Source: an uncultured Gammaproteobacteria bacterium
Lineage (GTDB): Bacteria; Patescibacteriota; Microgenomatia; Daviesbacterales; UBA10151
DNA: 33,148 nt
Assembly (NCBI GenBank): GCA_964637465.1
Contig: CAZWTE010000002.1
Location: 1 to 33,148, forward strand
Reading direction: 5' to 3'
The notes under the pieces were generated by a model. It searched no databases. It worked only from the letters and a program-made list of their open reading frames with translations, and was not told the DNA's origin. Every line of letters begins with the position of its first letter. Within the stretch, counting starts at the first letter, position 1. The position numbers were made by a program, and so were the translations under genes. Positions 6,041 to 18,312 of the stretch are shown one piece after another.

Positions 6041-7255
6041 TTATGATGTCAGTTTTTGGATGGCGTCGTCAAGTGTAAGGGTTTCCTGGGTTTTGTTTTG
6101 AAGATTCTTTAAGGTGGCCTGGTTTTGCTGGCTCTCGTTTGGCCCAATAATTACCACAAAAGGAATGCCTTTTTGATCGGCATATTTTAATTGTTTTTCC
6201 AGTTTAGAATTCGGGTCCAGCCAGAGTTCAGTGTTGATATCGCTGGAACGGAGTTGAGAGCTGATTTTCAAGGATTTTTGTTTCAACTCCTTGGAAAATA
6301 CCGTCACTAAAACTTTGGAAGAGGTTTCAAATCTTGGTAATAATTTCAGTTCTTCTAAAGCCTCTAATGTTCTGTCAAAACCAATACCGATTCCGGTTCC
6401 GGGAATATCTCTTCCCGAAATTTTCTTGACAAGTCCATCGTATCTTTCGCCGCCGCCAACCGATCCGCCGGAATAGCCAGGTATTACTATTTCCCATATC
6501 GGTCCTTCAGAATATGAAAATGATCTGGCTAGGGTCGGTTCAAACTGATACCAGTCTTGAGTAAATCCTGATTGCTCCAGATAATTAAAAATTGTTTTTA
6601 TTGAGTCATTAGGTTCTAAATTTTTAATATACTCAAGATATTTTTTACCTTCATCAATAGCTATTCCTTTCGCTTGCATTTCATTTATGACTGCTTCCTC
6701 ACCAATCTTTTTAAGCTTATCAATAGAGGCAATTGCAGGATAAGGAATGCTGATAAGCAGATCCCGGCTATTTATTAAAGCTATTACTTCTTTAAAGCCT
6801 AAACTTCGGTAGAGATCGAGAGTTACCGCTATAATTTCTGCATCAGCTAGGGGAGAGGCAACCCCAAAAATATCAATATCACTTTGTAAGAACTCTCTGA
6901 ATCTGCCCTTTTGTGGTTTTTCAGCCCGGAATGCCGGTTGAATCTGATACCTTCTAAATGGGAAGATGATTTGACCGAAATACTCACCAATCACGCGACA
7001 CGTCGGGACTGTTTGATCATAACGCAGCGCAACATCCCTGTCACCGGCATCCTTAAACTTATAGAACAGTTTTTCGTCTTCTCCTATTTGTCCGGCAAAA
7101 AGCTCAAGAGGCTCTAAGGTAGGAGTTTCAAGTGGTTCGTATCCCCATTTTTCAAAGACTTTAACCATTTGCTTTTTTAACCAGTCTCTCTTCCTGACCT
7201 CTTCAGGCAAGAAATCCCTAAATCCTTTTAATGTCTGTACTTTGATGTTAGTCAT
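6041..7255 (-). CDS. hisS: histidyl-tRNA synthetase (class IIa); a HisZ-like moonlighting role cannot be excluded
   Basis: GFRDFLP; LRYDQTVP (His-A-like); motif 2 FRAEKPQKGRFREFLQSDIDIFG; GGGERYDGL (His-B); GIGFDR (motif 3). The C-terminal anticodon-binding-like domain contains YADQKGIPFVVIIGPNE. It overlaps hisE by 8 nt. Confidence 0.8.
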   Translation of the reverse strand: MTNIKVQTLKGFRDFLPEEVRKRDWLKKQMVKVFEKWGYEPLETPTLEPLELFAGQIGEDEKLFYKFKDAGDRDVALRYDQTVPTCRVIGEYFGQIIFPFRRYQIQPAFRAEKPQKGRFREFLQSDIDIFGVASPLADAEIIAVTLDLYRSLGFKEVIALINSRDLLISIPYPAIASIDKLKKIGEEAVINEMQAKGIAIDEGKKYLEYIKNLEPNDSIKTIFNYLEQSGFTQDWYQFEPTLARSFSYSEGPIWEIVIPGYSGGSVGGGERYDGLVKKISGRDIPGTGIGIGFDRTLEALEELKLLPRFETSSKVLVTVFSKELKQKSLKISSQLRSSDINTELWLDPNSKLEKQLKYADQKGIPFVVIIGPNESQQNQATLKNLQNKTQETLTLDDAIQKLTS

Positions 7256-7544
7256 TTTTTCCTTTACTCAAATGCTGTCTTTTACTTAACTCTTTTAAGA
7301 TATCAGAAGGCGTGATATTAAACAAGCTTAACATGACCAGCAAGTGAAAGATTAAATCTGCCACTTCTGAAATAATTCTTTCTCTGCTTTCATTTTTGGC
7401 AGCAATAATTACCTCTACAGCTTCTTCACCTACTTTTTGGACAATAGTATCCGGGCCCTCCTTAAAAAGAGAAGCTACGTAAGAGTCTTCCGGCATTTTC
7501 TTTTTCCGGTTCTCAATAATTGCATAGAGTTGTTTTAATGTCAT
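7248..7544 (-). CDS. hisE: phosphoribosyl-ATP pyrophosphohydrolase
   Basis: SYVASLF...GEEAVEVIIAAKNE...EVADLIFHLLVML. I placed the start at ATG 7544, which forms an ATGA overlap with the hisI stop, rather than at the track start 7583. Confidence 0.88.
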   Translation of the reverse strand: MTLKQLYAIIENRKKKMPEDSYVASLFKEGPDTIVQKVGEEAVEVIIAAKNESRERIISEVADLIFHLLVMLSLFNITPSDILKELSKRQHLSKGKND

Positions 7545-7828
7545 ACAACCTCCTTGAAACAGGTTCTGCTGCCGGTGTGGCAAACATTTTTTCCCGTTAG
7601 TTCAACTTTGATTAACAGCGTATCAGCATCACAATCAGTAAATATTTTTTTTACCCTCAGCTTATTACCTGATGTTTCACCCTTTAACCAAAGCTTTTTT
7701 CTGCTTCTGCTCCAAAAATAAACCCATTTAGAGACTTTGGTTTTTTCCAAGGCTTTTTTGTTCATATAGCCTAACATCAGAATCTCGCCGCTTTTATAGT
7801 CCTGAATAATAACCGGAGTAAGTTTCAT
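7541..7828 (-). CDS. hisI: phosphoribosyl-AMP cyclohydrolase
   Basis: IIQD...[17 protein letters not shown]...DCDADTLL...CHTGSRTCF. It forms an ATGA overlap with the hisF stop. Confidence 0.9.
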
Positions 7829-8589
7829 ATCTCGCTCCTGATGGAGATTTTTTTACCCCTTAAATAATCTTTCAAATCTTTAATGGTTAATTCTCCAAAG
7901 TGAAATAGGGAAGCAGCAAGTGCCGCATCGGCGAGGCCTCTATTAAAGATTTCCACAAAATCCTCCAGCCTGCCGGCTCCGCCTGAGGCAATTATTGGCA
8001 CAGTAACAACCCCAGATACTCGTTTTGTCAGTTCCACATTAAATCCCTGTTTTGTGCCGTCAGTATCAATACTGGTTAACAATATTTCCCCGGCGCCTAA
8101 TTTAACAGCCTTTTTGGCCCACTCAACCGCTGATACGCCAGTATCGGTCATGCCTCCGTTAATAAAGACATTCCATCTGTTTTTGCTGACCTGTTTGGCA
8201 TCAAGCGATAACACTACGCACTGGCTGCCGAATTCTTTGGCGCAATCCGAAATCAGCGAAGGATTTTTAAATGCCCCGGTATTAACCGATACTTTATCAG
8301 CGCCGGCCCGGAGTATCATTCGCATATCCTCAACGGTTCTGATGCCTCCGCCAACCGAGAAGGGGATAGTTACCACTTCAGCTGTTCTTCTAACCACATC
8401 CAGTAAAATATCCCGGTTTTCCACTGTGGCTGTAATATCCAAAAATACCAGCTCATCAGCGCCTTCGTCACTGTACTTTTTAGCAAGCTGTACAGGATCT
8501 CCGGCATCCCGGAAATTAACAAACTGTATTCCTTTAACTACTTTGCCTTGAGTCATATCCAGACAAGGAACAATTCTTTTAGCCAACAT
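7825..8589 (-). CDS. hisF: imidazole glycerol phosphate synthase, cyclase subunit
   Basis: [15 protein letters not shown]; [12 protein letters not shown]; SVGGGIR; IASGGAG. This is the HisF signature, not the HisA one. Confidence 0.93.
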
Positions 8590-9229
8590 AATTTTTTCCT
8601 CCCATAAAATTTTTCAGCAGCTGAAAACCTATTTTGCCGCTTTTTTCCGGGTGGAATTGCACCCCGATAACATTATCTTTGGCCACAACGCTGGTAAATG
8701 TTTCCCCGTAATCAGTCAACCCGGCAATAATACTTTTATCTTCTGGCATGCAATAATAACTATTAACAAAATAGAAAAAGCTATTATCAGGAATACCCTG
8801 AAAAACTTTGAATTTTGAACTTTGCCGCCTTTGGCGAGCCTCGCCTCTGGCGGGAATTTTGAACTTTACTTCGTTCCAGCCAATTTGCGGAATCTTCCGC
8901 ATTTTTCTAAACCGTCTCACCTTTCCTTTAAAAATGCCAAGGCAATTGACATTACCTTCTTCGCTTCCTTCAAACAAAAGCTGCATTCCTAAACAAATCC
9001 CCAGGAATGGTTTGCCTTTGTTAATTTCATCAACAATGATTTGGTCCAGCCCTTTGGCTTGTAAGTTTTTCATACCCTGGCCGGCTGCGCCGACACCTGG
9101 CAGGATCAATGCCGCAGCTTTTTTAATCACAGCAGGCTTACCGGAAATTTGACTTTCCGCTCCCAGTTTATCCAAAGCGTTTTTAACGCTGGCTAAATTT
9201 CCTACTCCATAGTCAATTATTACTATCAT
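8579..9229 (-). CDS. hisH: imidazole glycerol phosphate synthase, glutamine amidotransferase subunit, carrying an in-frame repeat insertion
   Basis: IIDYGVGNL; GICLGMQLL (Cys nucleophile); QFHPEKS. I placed the start at ATG 9229 (ATGA overlap with the hisB stop), not at 9283. Confidence 0.9.
8810..8867. repeat. short composite repeat inside hisH: a 14-nt direct repeat (8810-8823 and 8854-8867) flanking a 30-nt GC-rich hairpin core
   Basis: GAATTTTGAACTTT ... GCCGCCTTTGGCGAGCCTCGCCTCTGGCGG ... GAATTTTGAACTTT. On the coding strand this encodes [20 protein letters not shown]. Confidence 0.85.
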
Positions 9230-9816
9230 AGTTTTCCTTTCGTTGAAGGAATTTGATTGGCAATTTTCCGGTTTCTTTGACAAGCCATATTAATGGCCCG
9301 GGCCGTTGCTTTAAAAATTGCCTCAATTTTGTGATGCTCATTTTCCCCGTACTCCACCTTAATAAATAGATTTACCCTGGCATTTTGGGCAAAAGAGTCC
9401 CAAAAGTGTTTAACTAACTCTGTCGGTAAATCTCCGACTTTTTCTTTGTTTATTGGACACTCGAATCTAAAAGAGTACCTGCCGGCAAAATCTATCGCCA
9501 CCGTGGCAATTGCTTCATCCATAGGCAGGATAAAAAAGCCATAGCGGTTAATACCCTTCTTTTCTCCCAGGGCTTTTGCAAAGGTTTCCCCTAAAACAAT
9601 TGCGACATCCTCAACTGTGTGATGCTCGTCAACCCAAGTATCACCTATGGCTTTAATGTCCAAATCAAATAGTCCTTGTTTGCTAAATAAATCCAACATG
9701 TGGTTTAAAAAACCAATCGGTGTATCTATTTTTCTTTGGCCGGTGCCATCAATATTCAGAGCAATTTTGATATTGGTCTCGCTGGTTTTTCTTTGAACTA
9801 TTGCCTGGCGTTTCAT
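9226..9816 (-). CDS. hisB: imidazoleglycerol-phosphate dehydratase
   Basis: RKTSETNI; DEHHTVEDVAI; GENEHHKIEAIFKA. It forms an ATGA overlap with the stop of the upstream hisC fusion gene. Confidence 0.93.
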   Translation of the reverse strand: MKRQAIVQRKTSETNIKIALNIDGTGQRKIDTPIGFLNHMLDLFSKQGLFDLDIKAIGDTWVDEHHTVEDVAIVLGETFAKALGEKKGINRYGFFILPMDEAIATVAIDFAGRYSFRFECPINKEKVGDLPTELVKHFWDSFAQNARVNLFIKVEYGENEHHKIEAIFKATARAINMACQRNRKIANQIPSTKGKL

Positions 9817-11348
9817 TTTTTTACTCCCTGAGTTAGCGCCTGGTAAAAGTTACCGTTAGTTTGCATCGGGATAAACTTAATGCCGATATTTTCGGCAAAA
9901 AGTTTGTCAGTATTCCTGTCCCCACACATAAAAGAGTTGTTTTTATCTATTAGGTTTTCTCTTAAGAATTTTTTCAGCAAACCGGTTTTAGGTTTTCGGC
10001 AGCCGCAGTTTTTTTCCGGCAGGTGAGGGCAAACATAAATTCTGGTAAATTTAATGTTGTTTTGTTTAAAAATAGCGAGCATTTTATCCTGGGGCGCTTG
10101 AAAACTGGTTTTGGGAAATGAGGCAGTGCCAATGCCATTTTGATTGGTGACCATGATTAGTTCGTATCCGCTCCTAATCAGTTTTTGCAGGCCGGCAATA
10201 ACACCATCTAAGATTTTTAATTTCTTGATATTGTCAATTTGGAAGGTATCCTGTGGTTCAAAAATTAAGGTACCGTCCCTGTCCAGAAATGCGTATTTTT
10301 TTAACATTATTTTTTTATAAATCCTGATAAACTCCTTCATTTGGTTAACGGTTCCAATACTAACGCGCAGCATATCTTTATGAGGCCGTACTGAAATGCC
10401 GGTATCTTTTAAGCTCTTAATTATATTTTTTTGATCCGGTTCAAAAAGTAAAAAATTACCTGAGGACGGGTAAAAAATTATTTTTTCTTTGGCAAAAAAT
10501 TCTTCAACCAGCGGTTTTGCCTTATTCATAACTTCATCTACATACATTTGCATATTTTTCCGGTCATCTAGCGCAGCAGATGCAGCTGTATATGCAAACA
10601 TACTTACAGCATATGGGCCTCGGACTTTTAATAACTCACTGATATATTTTTCTGAAGCAATGATATAGCCTATCCGGAGCGACGAGAGGCCGAATGCTTT
10701 TGATAAAGTACGGACAATAATAATGTTGGGGTATTTTTTGATCAGAGGGATGGCGGTAACTTTGGAAAATTCAAAATATGCTTCATCTGCCAGGATGATG
10801 GCGTTTGGAGCTTTCTTGGCGATTGCTTCGATATCCGTAATGGGCACTAACGTTCCTGTTGGATTGTTGGGATTACAAATAACAATTAGCTTGACTGATT
10901 TATTAATCATGCCCAGTAACCGCTTTAAAGAAAATGATAAATCTGATTTTGCATATAAAGGGCGAAGTATTTTATTTCCAGCTATTTTAGCGCATTGATA
11001 AAACATGGCAAAGGAGGGGGTGGGAATAATGACAGTATTAGTTTTTTCAGTAAATGTCCGAAAGATAAGATCAATTGCCTGATCGGAGCCGTTAGTAATC
11101 ATGACTTGATTGGTATTCATACCAGCATACCTGGCTAACTTTTTTTCCAGTTTGCCATACTCGGGATAAAGTTGTAATTTGTCGGCGTTCAACAGATTTT
11201 GGATGGCTTGTTTAACTTTTGGTGAAGGAGGTGTTGTCCTTTCGTTAAAATCCAAAAGTAAGCCACGAAAATCCCGCCGGCCAGCCAGGGGCGGGTTATA
11301 TAGTTCCATTTTTTGTATTTTCAATAACGCCAAATTTTTCATTTTCAT
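9813..11348 (-). CDS. hisC: fusion protein: histidinol-phosphate aminotransferase (N-terminal, about aa 1-347) plus HAD-type histidinol-phosphatase domain (C-terminal, about aa 348-511)
   Basis: N-terminal domain: CNPNNPTG and TLSKAFGLSSLRIGY (PLP Lys). C-terminal domain: FLDRDGTLI (DxDGT), VTNQNGI and CPHLPEKNCGCRKP, a Zn motif typical of the HisB-N/GmhB family. The reading frame is continuous, with the domain junction near nt 10307. Confidence 0.85.
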   Translation of the reverse strand: MKMKNLALLKIQKMELYNPPLAGRRDFRGLLLDFNERTTPPSPKVKQAIQNLLNADKLQLYPEYGKLEKKLARYAGMNTNQVMITNGSDQAIDLIFRTFTEKTNTVIIPTPSFAMFYQCAKIAGNKILRPLYAKSDLSFSLKRLLGMINKSVKLIVICNPNNPTGTLVPITDIEAIAKKAPNAIILADEAYFEFSKVTAIPLIKKYPNIIIVRTLSKAFGLSSLRIGYIIASEKYISELLKVRGPYAVSMFAYTAASAALDDRKNMQMYVDEVMNKAKPLVEEFFAKEKIIFYPSSGNFLLFEPDQKNIIKSLKDTGISVRPHKDMLRVSIGTVNQMKEFIRIYKKIMLKKYAFLDRDGTLIFEPQDTFQIDNIKKLKILDGVIAGLQKLIRSGYELIMVTNQNGIGTASFPKTSFQAPQDKMLAIFKQNNIKFTRIYVCPHLPEKNCGCRKPKTGLLKKFLRENLIDKNNSFMCGDRNTDKLFAENIGIKFIPMQTNGNFYQALTQGVKK

Positions 11349-11352
11349 AGGT

Positions 11353-12639
11353 TTAAAATCTGACTAAAACAGAATTTTTGTGAGCCGGCAGTTGCTCTAC
11401 TTCTGCAATAGTTCCGATTGCTTCTTTAATTTCGAGTAATCCGTTTTTGGTACATTTTTGGACTTGCATCCACTTGCCAAAAGCCTCTATCCCTAAAGGC
11501 GGGTGCATTTTGGCTGTGCCGCCCGTTGGCAAGACATGATTTGCTCCGGTGGCATAATCACCGCTTGATTTGGTTGTATAATCACCCAGGAAAACAGAAC
11601 CGGCATTAGTAATCTTGTTAACTAATTGCTCAGGTTTTTTTGTCATGATTTCCAAGTGCTCGGAAGCATACCGGTTAGCAAATTCAACTGCTTCGTCTAG
11701 TGAACCAACAATGGCAAATAAGCCATATTTTTCTAAAGATGTTTTAGCTCTTTCTTGAGTAGCCAGTTTTGGTAATTGTTTAGTAATCTCTTTGATTGTT
11801 TCTTCCGCCAGCAGTTTTGATGTGGTTAACAGGATGCAAGCGGAATCTGGGCCGTGTTCAGCGTCTGCTAATAAATCTGCTGCAATGAATTTGGGGTTGG
11901 CTGTGTCGTCCGCAATAATCAATACTTCAGAAGGTCCGGCCGGCATATCAATACTGATAGTTTGCAAGGCCAGTATTTTTGCGGCTGTGACATAAAGATT
12001 TCCTGCTCCAAAAATTTTATAGACACTGGGAATAGTGTTCGTACCATAAACCATGGCAGCAATTGCTTCTGCGCCACCAACTTTATAGATCTTTTTTATT
12101 CCTAACATATCAGCTGCCATTAAAGTTGGGGCAGGAGTTTTACCATCTGACTTGGCAGGGGAGCACATAATAATTTCTTTACAGCCAGCTACTTGGGCCG
12201 GGATCGCTGTCATTAAAACAGAAGAAGGGTAAACTGCTTTGCCACCCGGCACATAAATGCCCACTTTTTCAATTGGCCGCCAAACTCTCCAGACTGAAAT
12301 GCCTTTTTCGGTCTTCACAACAGTGTCTTTTTTGTTTTTCAGTTGGGCTTTTTGGACAGCGGTTATATTTTTGATCATTTGGTTTATTGATTTAATGAAC
12401 TTTCTATCTACATTCTGATAAGCCTTTTTGATTTCATCCCCGGTAACTTGTATTGAAAAAGGGGTCGGGCTGCCGGAAAACTTTTGGGAATATTTAATCA
12501 AAGCTTGATCGCCATTTTGCTTAACATCTTCCATGATTTTTTTAACCACCGGGATTACCTCCAGATAATTTTCGGAGGATCGTTTCATTATTTTTTTGTA
12601 ATCCTTTTTTGATAAGTCTTTTAAGTTAATGATTTTCAT
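11353..12639 (-). CDS. hisD: histidinol dehydrogenase
   Basis: [10 protein letters not shown]; AEHGPDS; SEHLEI; [15 protein letters not shown]. It forms an ATGA overlap with the hisG stop. Confidence 0.93.
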
Positions 12640-13283
12640 ATGATTATTTTTTCAAATTGCGCCACTAGCTTGCCTAATAGGATTTTTCTGCCATTTAACA
12701 ATGATTGTTTGTTTGAAATAAGTACTGTTTCAGAATTATATATTTTGGTAAGTATTCTTAAATCATTTACAGCAAGCGTGCGACCGGTTGAAGTAATATC
12801 AACTATGGCTTGTGCTATACCTAAGGCAGGAGCAATTTCAACAGATCCGCCTATGCGGGTAATCTTCACGGTAATACGGTTTTCTTTAAAGAAATTTTTT
12901 GTGGATTTTGGGTAGGTTGTAGCGATAGTTTTATTTTCTAAATCACTTAATTTTGTAATTTTTGATTCTTTTGGAACTGCTAGAACCAGTGAGCAAAACC
13001 CATATTTTAGATTGAGCAGCTTTTTTACTTTTGGCTTTTTTTCATTAAGCATATTCTGACCCAAAATGCCCAAATCAACCACGCCGGAGGCAACATAACC
13101 AGGAATGTCGTTGTTGCGGACGTAAAGAATTTCCAGGGGGAAATTTCGGCATAGGGAAAACAGCCTTTGTTTATAGCTTTCAAACTCCAGGCCGGATTTG
13201 CGCAAAAATTCCAGCGTTTCTTCGGTCAAACGTCCTTCTTTTTGAATTGCCAATTTTAAATTTTTAATACTTAAACTTGTCAT
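12636..13283 (-). CDS. hisG: ATP phosphoribosyltransferase, short form (about 215 aa, no C-terminal regulatory domain)
   Basis: LKLAIQKEGRL...DIPGYVASGVVDLGILG...DITSTGRTL. I placed the start at ATG 13283, which follows GAAAGGAAGG; the track start at 13331 lies inside the terminator hairpin. Confidence 0.88.
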   Translation of the reverse strand: MTSLSIKNLKLAIQKEGRLTEETLEFLRKSGLEFESYKQRLFSLCRNFPLEILYVRNNDIPGYVASGVVDLGILGQNMLNEKKPKVKKLLNLKYGFCSLVLAVPKESKITKLSDLENKTIATTYPKSTKNFFKENRITVKITRIGGSVEIAPALGIAQAIVDITSTGRTLAVNDLRILTKIYNSETVLISNKQSLLNGRKILLGKLVAQFEKIII

Positions 13284-13295
13284 ACCTTCCTTTCT

Positions 13296-13632
13296 AAGCC
13301 AACAAAAAACCTTCCGTTCTTTGCCCACCACAAAACGTGATGAACAAGGAACGGAAGGTTCAAAAAAAGGACCCTTCGACTTAGCTCAGGGCTATAGCCT
13401 CCCGCGGTCCCATCCTTTGTTCCATGTACCGTTACTGGTACGTGGCTCTTAGTGGCGACTTTGGTTTTCCAACATCGTCTGTTTCATTTTACGGTTAAAC
13501 TTCCGGCAAGTATTTGGCTTGCAGCCATGAACCAGAATAAATTCGGTTCATGGTCCTGAAGTGAAACTTTGTTTCTACTTCATGGACTCCTGGATCGTGA
13601 CTCCAGTGAAACGCTTTTGAATATTTAGTTGT
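13296..13632 (-). promoter_or_regulatory. candidate T-box riboswitch leader specific for tRNA-His, controlling the his operon
   Basis: T-box core AAAGGAUGGGACCGCG (13420-13403) matches the consensus AGGGUGGNACCGCG at all but one position. Helix A1 is GAACAAAGGA (13422-13413) paired with UCCUUGUUC (13350-13342). The 7-nt bulge is UGGGACC (13412-13406). Helix A2 is GCGGGAGG (13405-13398) paired with CCUUCCGU (13358-13351). The 3' strand of the antiterminator is the 5' strand of the terminator. The first leader hairpin displays CAC in its loop (13599-13597). Confidence 0.65.
13301..13360 (-). terminator. intrinsic terminator (attenuator) immediately upstream of the hisG RBS
   Basis: Minus strand reads AACCUUCCGUUC CUUGUU CAUCAC GUUUU GUGGUG GGCAAA GAACGGAAGGUU, a roughly 23-bp near-continuous hairpin at 13360-13308. 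It is followed by UUUUUGUU. Confidence 0.75.
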
Positions 13633-13638
13633 GTAATT

Positions 13639-13666
13639 AGTATAACACAAAAATTATACCTGTCAA
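13639..13666 (-). promoter_or_regulatory. candidate sigma70-type promoter of the his leader (TTGACA-16 nt-TATACT)
   Basis: Minus strand reads TTGACA (13666-13661), a 16-nt spacer ending in TGT, then TATACT (13644-13639). Confidence 0.5.
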
Positions 13667-13793
13667 ATTTACTATCGGTTAGAGTACAGGCCTGATAAGG
13701 GGATTCGTTTTAGAACTTAATTTAATGCAAAGTGTTTAATGTTCACAAGTATGGGGATGCGGCGGATTTACAATATGTGGTATATTAAAAATT

Positions 13794-18195: not shown

Positions 18196-18229
18196 AAAAT
18201 CACCCTTACTTATTTCTTTCGTTATTTTG

Positions 18230-18312
18230 TGCCGGAGGAGGGATTTGAACCCTCACGGCCTTGCGACCAATAGTTTTTGAGACTATCCTGTATACCGTTC
18301 CAGCACCCCGGC
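18230..18312 (-). tRNA. tRNA-Leu (anticodon CAA), type II with long variable arm, CCA not encoded
   Basis: Minus strand: acceptor stem GCCGGGG/CTCCGGC (one G-U pair) and discriminator A. Anticodon stem ATAGT/ACTAT with loop CTCAAAA. Variable arm GGTCGCAAGGCC. T arm GAGGG-TTCAAAT-CCCTC. Confidence 0.9.

Follow-up and report, generated by a model that had tools for sequence, protein, structure and literature searches.

The window analysed here, a stretch of 33,148 nt (contig CAZWTE010000002.1 of assembly GCA_964637465.1), carries a histidine biosynthesis (his) operon, preceded by a structured leader of about 349 nt that runs from a promoter to the ribosome-binding site (RBS) of hisG. The leader is very probably a tRNA-His-responsive T-box riboswitch that attenuates transcription of the operon, in a minimal family of the Microgenomates type, that is, of the Patescibacteria or candidate phyla radiation (CPR). 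The sequence elements, the covarying helices, the mutually exclusive folds with their energetics, the family membership and the tRNA-His match in relatives were computed here. All leader coordinates are on the minus strand in window numbering, and the features are as follows.

13639-13666, minus strand: sigma-70-type promoter, TTGACA (13666-13661), a 16-nt spacer and TGnTATACT; 11 of 12 consensus positions match, with a TG extension.
13639-13644, minus strand: -10 hexamer TATACT of this promoter, with TG upstream.
13613-13615, minus strand: 5' strand AGC of the Stem I basal helix, 3 bp, partner GCU at 13525-13523.
13590-13606, minus strand: ultrashort Stem I specifier hairpin CUGGA / GUCACGA / UCCAG, 5 bp with a 7-nt loop.
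13526-13587, minus strand: two window-specific inserted hairpins (13587-13553, z = -5.4; 13552-13526, z = -4.8).
13506-13522, minus strand: mini Stem II, GCAAG / CCAAAUA / CUUGC.
13481-13505, minus strand: Stem IIA, F-box-like element and pseudoknot; CGG 13505-13503 with CCG 13494-13492, CCGUAA 13494-13489, GUUU 13500-13497 with AAAC 13484-13481.
13454-13479, minus strand: linker helix GACGA / UCGCC around the hairpin UUGG-AAAA-CCAA, with a conserved UG/AG internal loop.
13420-13450, minus strand: 5' part of the discriminator; purine string AAGAG 13450-13446, Stem III 13445-13422, AA 13421-13420.
13398-13417, minus strand: T-box core; A1 5' strand AAGGA 13417-13413, bulge UGGGACC 13412-13406, A2 5' strand GCGGGAGG 13405-13398.
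13362-13397, minus strand: A2 loop with the inner hairpin element; 23-nt window-specific insert 13397-13375, GGGUCC 13374-13369, U7 13368-13362.
13342-13358, minus strand: 3' strands of A2 (CCUUCCGU, 13358-13351) and A1 (UCCUU, 13350-13346), the latter possibly to 13342; the same bases form the terminator 5' strand.
13304-13361, minus strand: intrinsic terminator; 24-pair interrupted hairpin 13361-13307, G-C-closed core 13358-13310, U6 13309-13304.
13281-13294, minus strand: hisG RBS GAAAGGAAGG (13294-13285) and ATG (13283), read from the sequence.
6041-13283, minus strand: putative regulated operon of hisG, hisD, a hisC-HAD fusion, hisB, hisH, hisF, hisI, hisE and a hisS-type gene, by NCBIfam and Pfam matches.

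A first-pass annotation of this DNA, made from the letters alone, had named the TTGACA-16-TATACT promoter, which is present on the minus strand, as well as a T-box core with a terminator. The mini Stem II, the Stem IIA/B pseudoknot with its F-box, the linker helix, the Stem III purine string, the two inserted hairpins and the inner hairpin are additions to that picture. The promoters of relatives occupy the same relative position. Folded as a whole, the leader reaches -127 kcal/mol (z = -7.5 versus shuffled sequence).

The core sequence GGAUGGGACCGCG (13415-13403) has one mismatch to GGGUGGNACCGCG, as had been claimed, and is unique in the 33 kb, where 0.01 chance matches are expected. The 7-nt bulge and the A2 helix were also correctly described: UGGG of the bulge is complementary to the tRNA 3' CCCA, and GCGGGAGG pairs with CCUUCCGU, with a wobble G13405•U13351 at the bulge-proximal end. 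The A1 helix had been drawn as nine pairs, GAACAA(A)GGA with UCCUUGUUC. Its 5-bp core, AAGGA with UCCUU (13350-13346), stands; across the family, however, only five base pairs are fixed, about 60% of members show covariation at a sixth, and pairing of the conserved AA that follows Stem III does not exceed chance, so the nine-pair version is too long. A T-box discriminator requires 5'-RRRxG-Stem III-AA-3' together with a G•U wobble where A2 adjoins the bulge (PMC7583486), and the window carries both, the motif as AAGAG, Stem III (13445-13422) and AA. All seven pairs of Stem III show double changes in the family alignment, where AGAG is nearly invariant.

The terminator hairpin (13361-13307) has a predicted stability of -35.7 kcal/mol (z = -7.9), which none of 200 shuffles equalled. 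It takes up 13358-13346, i.e., the 3' strands of A2 and A1, and is followed by U6, in line with the earlier statement that the antiterminator 3' strand (13358-13342) doubles as the terminator 5' strand; the two structures are thus mutually exclusive. For the full window transcript, the OFF fold is at -66.8 kcal/mol versus -47.4 kcal/mol with A1 and A2 forced. In a nascent RNA ending at 13337, the alternative fold (-33.7 kcal/mol) and the antiterminator (-32.4 kcal/mol) are nearly equal, which is the balance that a ligand-tipped kinetic switch needs.

Relatives were collected by two scans. A hisG-based scan of species-representative genomes yielded 25 loci, mostly metagenome-assembled genomes (MAGs) labelled Daviesbacteria, Gottesmanbacteria, Levybacteria, Microgenomates or Patescibacteria, with some labelled "uncultured Gammaproteobacteria" and four Chloroflexi; in 16 of these 25 related loci, UGGGACCGCG precedes hisG by 70-360 nt. 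A metagenome scan with the lineage-specific 18-mer AGGATGGGACCGCGGGAG returned at least 120 contigs. Removal of seven GC-rich coding-sequence chance matches and four canonical long-Stem-I leaders left at least 106 unique leaders of one family, and the counts out of 106 given below are among the matches listed. By its hisG relatives the window lineage is of the Microgenomates type, and its promoter-region DNA is similar to that of a Daviesbacteria MAG.

Sixty-one compact members, the window excluded, were aligned with MAFFT. From 5' to 3' the family order is basal helix, internal loop, Stem I, Stem II, a unit of Stem IIA, F-box-like CCGUWA and 4-bp pseudoknot, linker helix, RRGAG-Stem III-AA, and AAGGA-UGGGACC-GCGGGAGG. 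Unguided RNAalifold recovered Stems I, II, IIA and III, with compensatory changes in 18 of 21 pairs. Scored against the full structure, pseudoknot included, 89.9% of cells are paired; column shuffles give 62.8%, and sliding the partners by one to three columns gives 29-41%. Double-change cells number 552 against 155 in shuffles, and the covariation score was reached by none of 500 shuffles. A comparison with orthologous leaders, suggested earlier as a check, therefore came out clearly: the A1, A2 and CAC-loop elements are conserved, and Stems I-III, the pseudoknot and the linker covary strongly. At the A2/A1 3' strands, 105 of 106 relatives have CUCUCGUUCCU or wobble-compatible variants, the variation in A2 being U/C changes opposite G only (CUCUCGU, CUUCCGU, CUCCCGU) plus one CCCUCGU variant.

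A covariance model built from the 61-sequence alignment, with the window left out (R1), matches the window at 13554-13394 with 104.8 bits (E ~7e-31), from Stem II through the T-box. A second match, of 16.3 bits, covers the Stem I hairpin at 13622-13558, and every other match in the window is at or below 10.5 bits; the R1 match is split by a 62-nt insert between Stem I and Stem II. For comparison, R1 scores 83-144 bits on relatives outside the seed (L001, L004, L015 and L007) and 20-41 bits on canonical His T-boxes. All family helices and invariant nucleotides are kept in the window. The expression platform is a terminator on the A2/A1 3' strand in 75 of 106 members, and about 27 of 106 are translational: there UUCCUU pairs with a Shine-Dalgarno (SD) sequence (GAGGAG or AAGGAGG) 5-9 nt before the start codon, and no U-tract is found at that point.

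The decoding arm, from Stem I to the linker helix, shows the same pattern of conserved loops on variable stems. The basal helix is fully paired in 54 of 60 relatives (shuffled mean 34, maximum 44), through the variants AGC/GCU, UCC/GGA, GGC/GCC, GAC/GUC and UUC/GGA, and the Rfam alignment of locus L002 pairs the same bases. An asymmetric internal loop separates it, in the family alignment, from the 5-bp hairpin. This hairpin, CUGGA-GUCACGA-UCCAG, had been proposed as the specifier, with a His codon followed by a purine. It is indeed present: CAC lies at 13599-13597 of the loop, the next nucleotide is G (13596), and the codon matches the downstream his genes. The strict form of the hairpin (5 bp and 7 nt) occurs in 69 unique leaders, with the loop GUCACGA in 69 of 69 on 19 different stems; each Stem I pair shows 13-33 double changes, and none is broken. 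Other members have a 9-nt specifier loop, e.g., AGUCACGCC, and CAC is unchanged in every one.

Downstream of Stem I, all five pairs of Stem II show double changes and 93% are paired in the family. The Stem II loop, of the form C(C)AAAAU(A), has an invariant AAA, and no S-turn could be recognised in Stem II, with no AGUA/GAA-type internal loop in the window or the family alignment. T-boxes in general carry a Stem IIA/B pseudoknot with an F-box (CCGUUA), represented in the window by CGG...CCGUAA (13505-13489). Stem IIA (CGG/CCG, CAG/CUG, CGC/GCG, CAC/GUG) and the pseudoknot (GUUG/CAAC, GUUU/AAAC, GUGA/UCAC and others) both covary. In the linker helix, eight of nine pairs show double changes and 84% are paired; the helix is found in canonical Chloroflexi His T-boxes as well. 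[quoted passage not shown] The first-pass annotation had seen no AG bulge, distal loop or kink-turn (K-turn). Its negative stands for the bulge and the distal loop; a canonical K-turn was found only in part at the base of Stem I, where the two flanking adenines are invariant but no more than about one-third of members have tandem GA/GA.

The 62-nt insert sits exactly between the "GA" after Stem I and the "GCUG" before Stem II, a site at which L001, L004 and L009 also have inserts. Its second hairpin (13526-13552) matches L015 Stem III (2266-2292), taken as reverse complement, with 96% identity over 27 nt; two related riboswitches carry the same small palindromic hairpin, inverted and at another site in the one relative to the other. 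A check for a mobile-element origin of the inserted hairpins found no repeats within the window and one inverted match, that to L015 Stem III.

The ligand could be examined in the relatives. ARAGORN found 25 tRNA genes beside related leaders, all of them tRNA-His(GUG), and a relaxed scan added four tRNA-His genes with unusual T-arms. All of the 25 and the four encode G-1 and C73, matching the UGGG bulge; the earlier claim that the variable G of the bulge is complementary to C73 of tRNA-His is thus borne out in all 25-29 genes. In addition, the T-box terminator is immediately followed by a same-strand tRNA-His(GUG) gene in L011 (2880-2952), L014, L015, L022, L002, L025 and about 23 metagenome loci (e.g., L028, L041, L055 and L077); in L011 it begins 1 nt after the U-run. 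Such tRNA genes precede hisG or other genes, and the arrangement is also seen behind two canonical long-Stem-I His T-boxes (L049 and L121). By this position the riboswitch appears to control the gene of its own ligand; if the linked gene is the only tRNA-His, this would be a positive feedback loop with a risk of lock-out. Three of the genes (L002 2911-2982, L014 2905-2978 and L025 ~2520-2570) are tRNA-His-like, with the aberrant T-arm GCGAGAGCAUUACUCGU instead of GGUUCGAAUCC. ARAGORN misses those of L002 and L025, and the Rfam tRNA model gives L002 and L014 only 46-49 bits.

On this basis we infer tRNA binding, readthrough, the start site and a role for an inner hairpin. Transcription would start near 13632, some 7 nt beyond the -10 hexamer. 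The GUG anticodon of tRNA-His would then pair with CAC in the 7-nt apical loop of the ultrashort Stem I, with no elbow-binding platform involved. If the tRNA is uncharged, its 3' end, C73-C-C-A, would pair with UGGG of the bulge and stabilise the antiterminator, composed of A1, A2 and the Stem III purine string. The antiterminator is proposed to hold 13358-13346 away from the terminator, so that RNA polymerase reads into hisG. With charged or absent tRNA, 13358-13346 would instead form the 24-pair terminator, and the freed 5' half (the A1 5' strand and the bulge) would fold with GGUCC-U7 into the inner hairpin, locking the OFF state. The inner hairpin with its U-tract probably also pauses the polymerase just before the decision point.

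This inner hairpin lies in the A2 loop, which is 39 nt long and itself structured, a point on which the earlier description needs correction. In minimum-free-energy folds GGUCCU pairs with GGGACC of the bulge and the U-run pairs with the A1 5' strand; including the latter pairing, the window hairpin reaches -21 kcal/mol. Directly 3' of the A2 5' strand, 104 of 106 members have GGUCC, GGUCUC or GCGGUC and then a pure run of U5-9 (mode 6). Each variant can pair with GGGACC, and GCGGUC also with the first A2 bases. The element occurs in terminator-type and SD-type leaders alike; of the eight canonical long-Stem-I His T-boxes examined, none has it, save for a partial version in L121. Two further observations concern this region. 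The motif GAGC(N)AAGUCGAA recurs in independent insertions (window 13375-13387, the A2 loops of L004 and L120, and the linker hairpin of L130). In a Daviesbacteria leader (L003 2931-3000), the decoding module is complete and both the T-box core and the inner hairpin with U6 are retained, but the A1/A2 3' strands are missing, as is any second terminator ahead of hisG; either this copy has decayed, or it indicates that the inner hairpin can act alone.

We prefer the reading that, in the OFF state, the inner hairpin ties up the antiterminator's 5' half and that its U-tract pauses the polymerase, which would buy time for tRNA capture without an elbow platform; since a pure U-tract follows the hairpin, the polymerase is probably paused just ahead of the decision point. 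The incoming A2 3' strand would find its toehold in the hairpin loop, GCGGGA. Alternatively, the inner hairpin with U7 (13411-13362) would be the primary regulated terminator, with the tRNA 3' end competing directly against GGUCC for the bulge ahead of A1/A2 formation and the large terminator as a mere backup. The near-universal pure U-tract, the retention of the element in translational members that have no second terminator, and L003, which keeps only this element, agree with such a role, as does L011, whose version (six pairs, four of them G-C, and a loop of six) was scored as terminator-like by a generic scan. However, when the polymerase is at the inner U-tract the A2/A1 3' strands do not yet exist, and the canonical antiterminator therefore cannot block the inner hairpin. 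The tRNA end would have only 4 bp to set against a 6-bp hairpin, and an isolated bulge without Stem III, A1 and A2 does not appreciably bind tRNA (PMC7583486). The stem is also short (-8 to -12 kcal/mol), and in 75 of 106 members a far stronger terminator, overlapping the antiterminator, is retained downstream. A primary regulated terminator at this place is possible but less likely than the sequestering and pausing role, and we regard it as improbable.

For the T-box interpretation as a whole, several observations weigh against the window copy. RF00230, the Rfam T-box model, gives no match in the window at its gathering score (93 bits in Rfam release 15) or at E<=10, either over 801 nt or with the leader alone. 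There is no tRNA-His gene in the window. The K-turn position reads CA/GA, with the 62-nt insert in the non-bulged strand, and the window is the sole family member with an insert (23 nt) inside the inner hairpin. Transcriptional T-boxes generally require the IDTM, which is expendable in translational ones owing to relaxed kinetic demands (PMC7583486), and in the published view short-Stem-I T-boxes need a Stem II S-turn (PMC7583486, PMC10482949); contrary to these requirements, neither is evident in the window. The K-turn deviation, the junction insert or the inner-hairpin insert could impair the window copy, and its full function, given the inserts and the CA/GA, is the main residual doubt.

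It is important to note what the Rfam result covers. The model finds three orthologous Microgenomates leaders at 32-48 bits, below the gathering score, with E from 2e-3 to 1e-7, or 7e-10 when a leader is searched alone, and it gives canonical-looking Chloroflexi His T-boxes upstream of hisG only 50-69 bits. On L002 it deletes 75 consensus positions of the distal Stem I, which are the AG bulge and the distal platform, and aligns AAAAGCG...GAGCU, a short Stem II, the F-box CCGUUA, Stem III and the T-box with A1 and A2 at high posterior probability. The search, which had been recommended as a check, thus failed on the window and matched its orthologues below threshold; the two inserted hairpins and the 23-nt A2-loop insert explain the failure. 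Permissive Rfam scans of the window gave only spurious miRNA-type matches on the terminator hairpin. With scans either spurious or empty, Rfam is unable to decide the membership of the window copy. The first-pass annotation would have abandoned the T-box if a covariance-model match and any conservation or covariation were both missing, and only the former is.

The doubt about the window copy could be taken further, to a decaying or non-functional relic in which the inserts and the non-canonical K-turn disable decoding and the leader acts as a constitutive, leaky attenuator. The missing RF00230 match, the splitting of the R1 match by an insert in the very strand meant to form the K-turn, the 5' CA in place of GA and the insert found in the inner hairpin of the window alone can all be read in this way, and L003 shows that partial loss does happen in the family. 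Yet all family helices and invariant nucleotides are intact in the window, the inserts fold into stable, independent hairpins and L001, L004 and L009 have inserts at this site too, GA/GA is present in only about one-third of members anyway, and the operon is intact; we therefore hold a relic to be quite unlikely. Ribosome-mediated attenuation through a leader peptide with His codons, of the kind seen in sister lineages and proteobacteria, deserves hardly any credence. It is used, apparently, at T-box-less Microgenomates hisG loci (L005, L010, L012, L013 and L020), which have short HH/HHH open reading frames (ORFs) and a terminator, and the window leader does contain a 12-codon ORF ending in His (13487-13449). 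But this ORF has a single His codon and no convincing RBS, its AUG is not conserved (AAAAUACAAC in relatives), and it overlaps the covarying pseudoknot and linker helix. The leader has no tandem-His ORF, and the comparative data effectively refute leader-peptide attenuation, which was rejected; nor is there any Rfam match in the window to a His-operon leader attenuator (e.g., RF00514), and the sister loci with leader ORFs look quite different. The interpretation as a tRNA-His T-box, put forward in the first-pass annotation, is supported by the R1 score of 104.8 bits, the covariation, the invariant CAC loop and C73 in the relatives.

Sister loci differ in how the his genes are controlled. T-box-less hisG leaders with HH or HHH ORFs (e.g., ...SLHHHN*) and then a terminator were seen at L005, L006, L010, L012, L013 and L020, and some sister hisG loci (L008, L010, L021 and L023 are listed) also have an upstream TrpR/YerC-like ORF, a candidate HisR. 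T-box, leader ORF and candidate HisR would thus be three his-regulation mechanisms that alternate among close relatives. Within the T-box family, five loci (L032, L039, L042, L043 and L085) have two leader matches each, about 3.5 kb apart and convergent. In one clade, near-identical SD-sequestering leader copies stand before several genes per contig, namely hisG, an M15 VanX-like dipeptidase and a SLOG cluster-4 protein; L046, L050, L063, L092 and L119 are listed with the same group, and in other places family leaders stand before M20 peptidases, a GNAT and an AstE/AspA-type deacylase. These associations suggest a His-starvation regulon that includes peptide or acyl-amino-acid salvage.

The tight spacing and common orientation of the his genes in the window point to co-transcription, and their arrangement suggests that the leader controls the whole operon. 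The gene set has peculiarities of its own. hisA is missing between hisH (8579-9283) and hisF (7825-8589); hisC (9813-11348, 511 aa) is fused to a HAD-type histidinol phosphatase; hisI (7541-7828) and hisE (7248-7583) are separate, overlapping frames. The hisG product is the short form, which normally requires HisZ, and the sole HisZ candidate (6041-7255) exceeds the hisS cutoff and has an anticodon-binding domain. Upstream, the block ACCGATAGTAAATTTGACA (13661-13679) spans the -35 hexamer and 13 nt before it; its DNA is conserved in the window, L003 (a Daviesbacteria MAG) and L045 (a metagenome contig) despite different flanking genes, and may serve as an UP element or regulator site. Elsewhere in the window, a tRNA-Leu(CAA) gene with a long variable arm (18229-18312, minus strand) is the sole Rfam match at gathering level.

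T-box riboswitches are the model system for RNA-RNA recognition of tRNA. A T-box before a his operon is functionally ordinary; in its architecture this one is a novel form of a type already known. The family contradicts the pairing found in reviews, in which transcriptional T-boxes require the long Stem I platform for sufficiently rapid tRNA capture and the ultrashort form is translational, mostly actinobacterial and S-turn-dependent. Its members offer natural test cases for the minimal RNA of co-transcriptional tRNA decoding, for the dispensability of the K-turn and for a programmed pause replacing the platform. Although at least 106 distinct members exist, the family is invisible to Rfam at the curated threshold; a dedicated covariance model would recover such elements in annotation. 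It also means that some CPR bacteria retain and tightly regulate a full histidine pathway. A wider proposal, which we put forward tentatively and would not yet bet on, is that of a distinct T-box class, widespread in Microgenomates/CPR, that works co-transcriptionally without elbow platform or S-turn, compensates with the bulge-pairing inner hairpin as a pause and/or anti-antiterminator, and has tRNA-His feedback wiring in about one-quarter of genomes.

In the published scheme there are four T-box classes, and Class III has a short Stem I without IDTM and a specifier in a 5-6-nt apical loop, is S-turn-dependent and mostly translational, and belongs to actinobacterial ileS (PMC10482949). Its exemplars are ileS of Mycobacterium and Nocardia (Sherwood et al. 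2015, as represented in the reviews PMC7583486 and PMC10482949). TBDB restricts its short-Stem-I model to Actinobacteria and class I matches with a truncated Stem I, and a survey of histidine regulation covered Firmicutes, using RF00230. A literature search returned nothing that links T-boxes to CPR/Patescibacteria or to a downstream tRNA gene, within a limited collection that is no proof of novelty.

The likeness to the actinobacterial ultrashort Stem I class, which the first-pass annotation had noted, fits. Like Class III, the window leader has a short Stem I that lacks AG bulge, distal loop and IDTM, an apical-loop specifier followed by a purine, and a canonical discriminator with purine string, UGGN bulge, A1/A2 and G•U wobble, and insertions in A2 are common in both. 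The differences are considerable, however. The window family decodes His (CAC) rather than Ile, in Microgenomates/CPR rather than Actinobacteria, with an apical loop of 7 nt (9 in the L032 group) instead of 5-6 nt. Where Class III has an elongated Stem II with an S-turn (a 5-purine string), Stem II of the family is 5 bp long and capped by CAAAAU or CCAAAUA; where Class III sequesters the SD, the window, whose RBS is free, and 75 of 106 relatives use an intrinsic terminator. The conserved inner hairpin with its U-tract and the extra linker helix after the pseudoknot are features of the window family.

Canonical Class I His T-boxes (Lactococcus, Corynebacterium and Lactobacillales; PMC9413887) share with the window CAC, UGGG, the his operon and a terminator that overlaps the antiterminator. 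The long-Stem-I His T-boxes of Chloroflexi (L016-L019) have in common with the window family the GGAUGGGACC core, the linker helix and the GAGAGC-Stem III context. Both groups differ from it: their Stem I is long and bears an AG bulge and a distal loop, the specifier sits in an internal loop, Stem II is long and the inner GGUCC-U hairpin is lacking, and they score 50-69 bits with RF00230, versus no match for the window. The core, linker helix and Stem III context held in common with Chloroflexi suggest common ancestry, and the shared linker helix suggests that the window family descends from a canonical ancestor by truncation. The closest parallel to the inner hairpin is found in stem Sa of staphylococcal glyS (PMC9177973), which is likewise a lineage-specific, conserved, structured insertion in the apical part of A2 of a transcriptional T-box. 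Stem Sa is, however, an appended stem-loop that modulates the choice of tRNA isoacceptor, whereas the window element complements the bulge and ends in a U-tract, which argues for an alternative pairing, of the OFF state or of a pause, rather than an appended arm.

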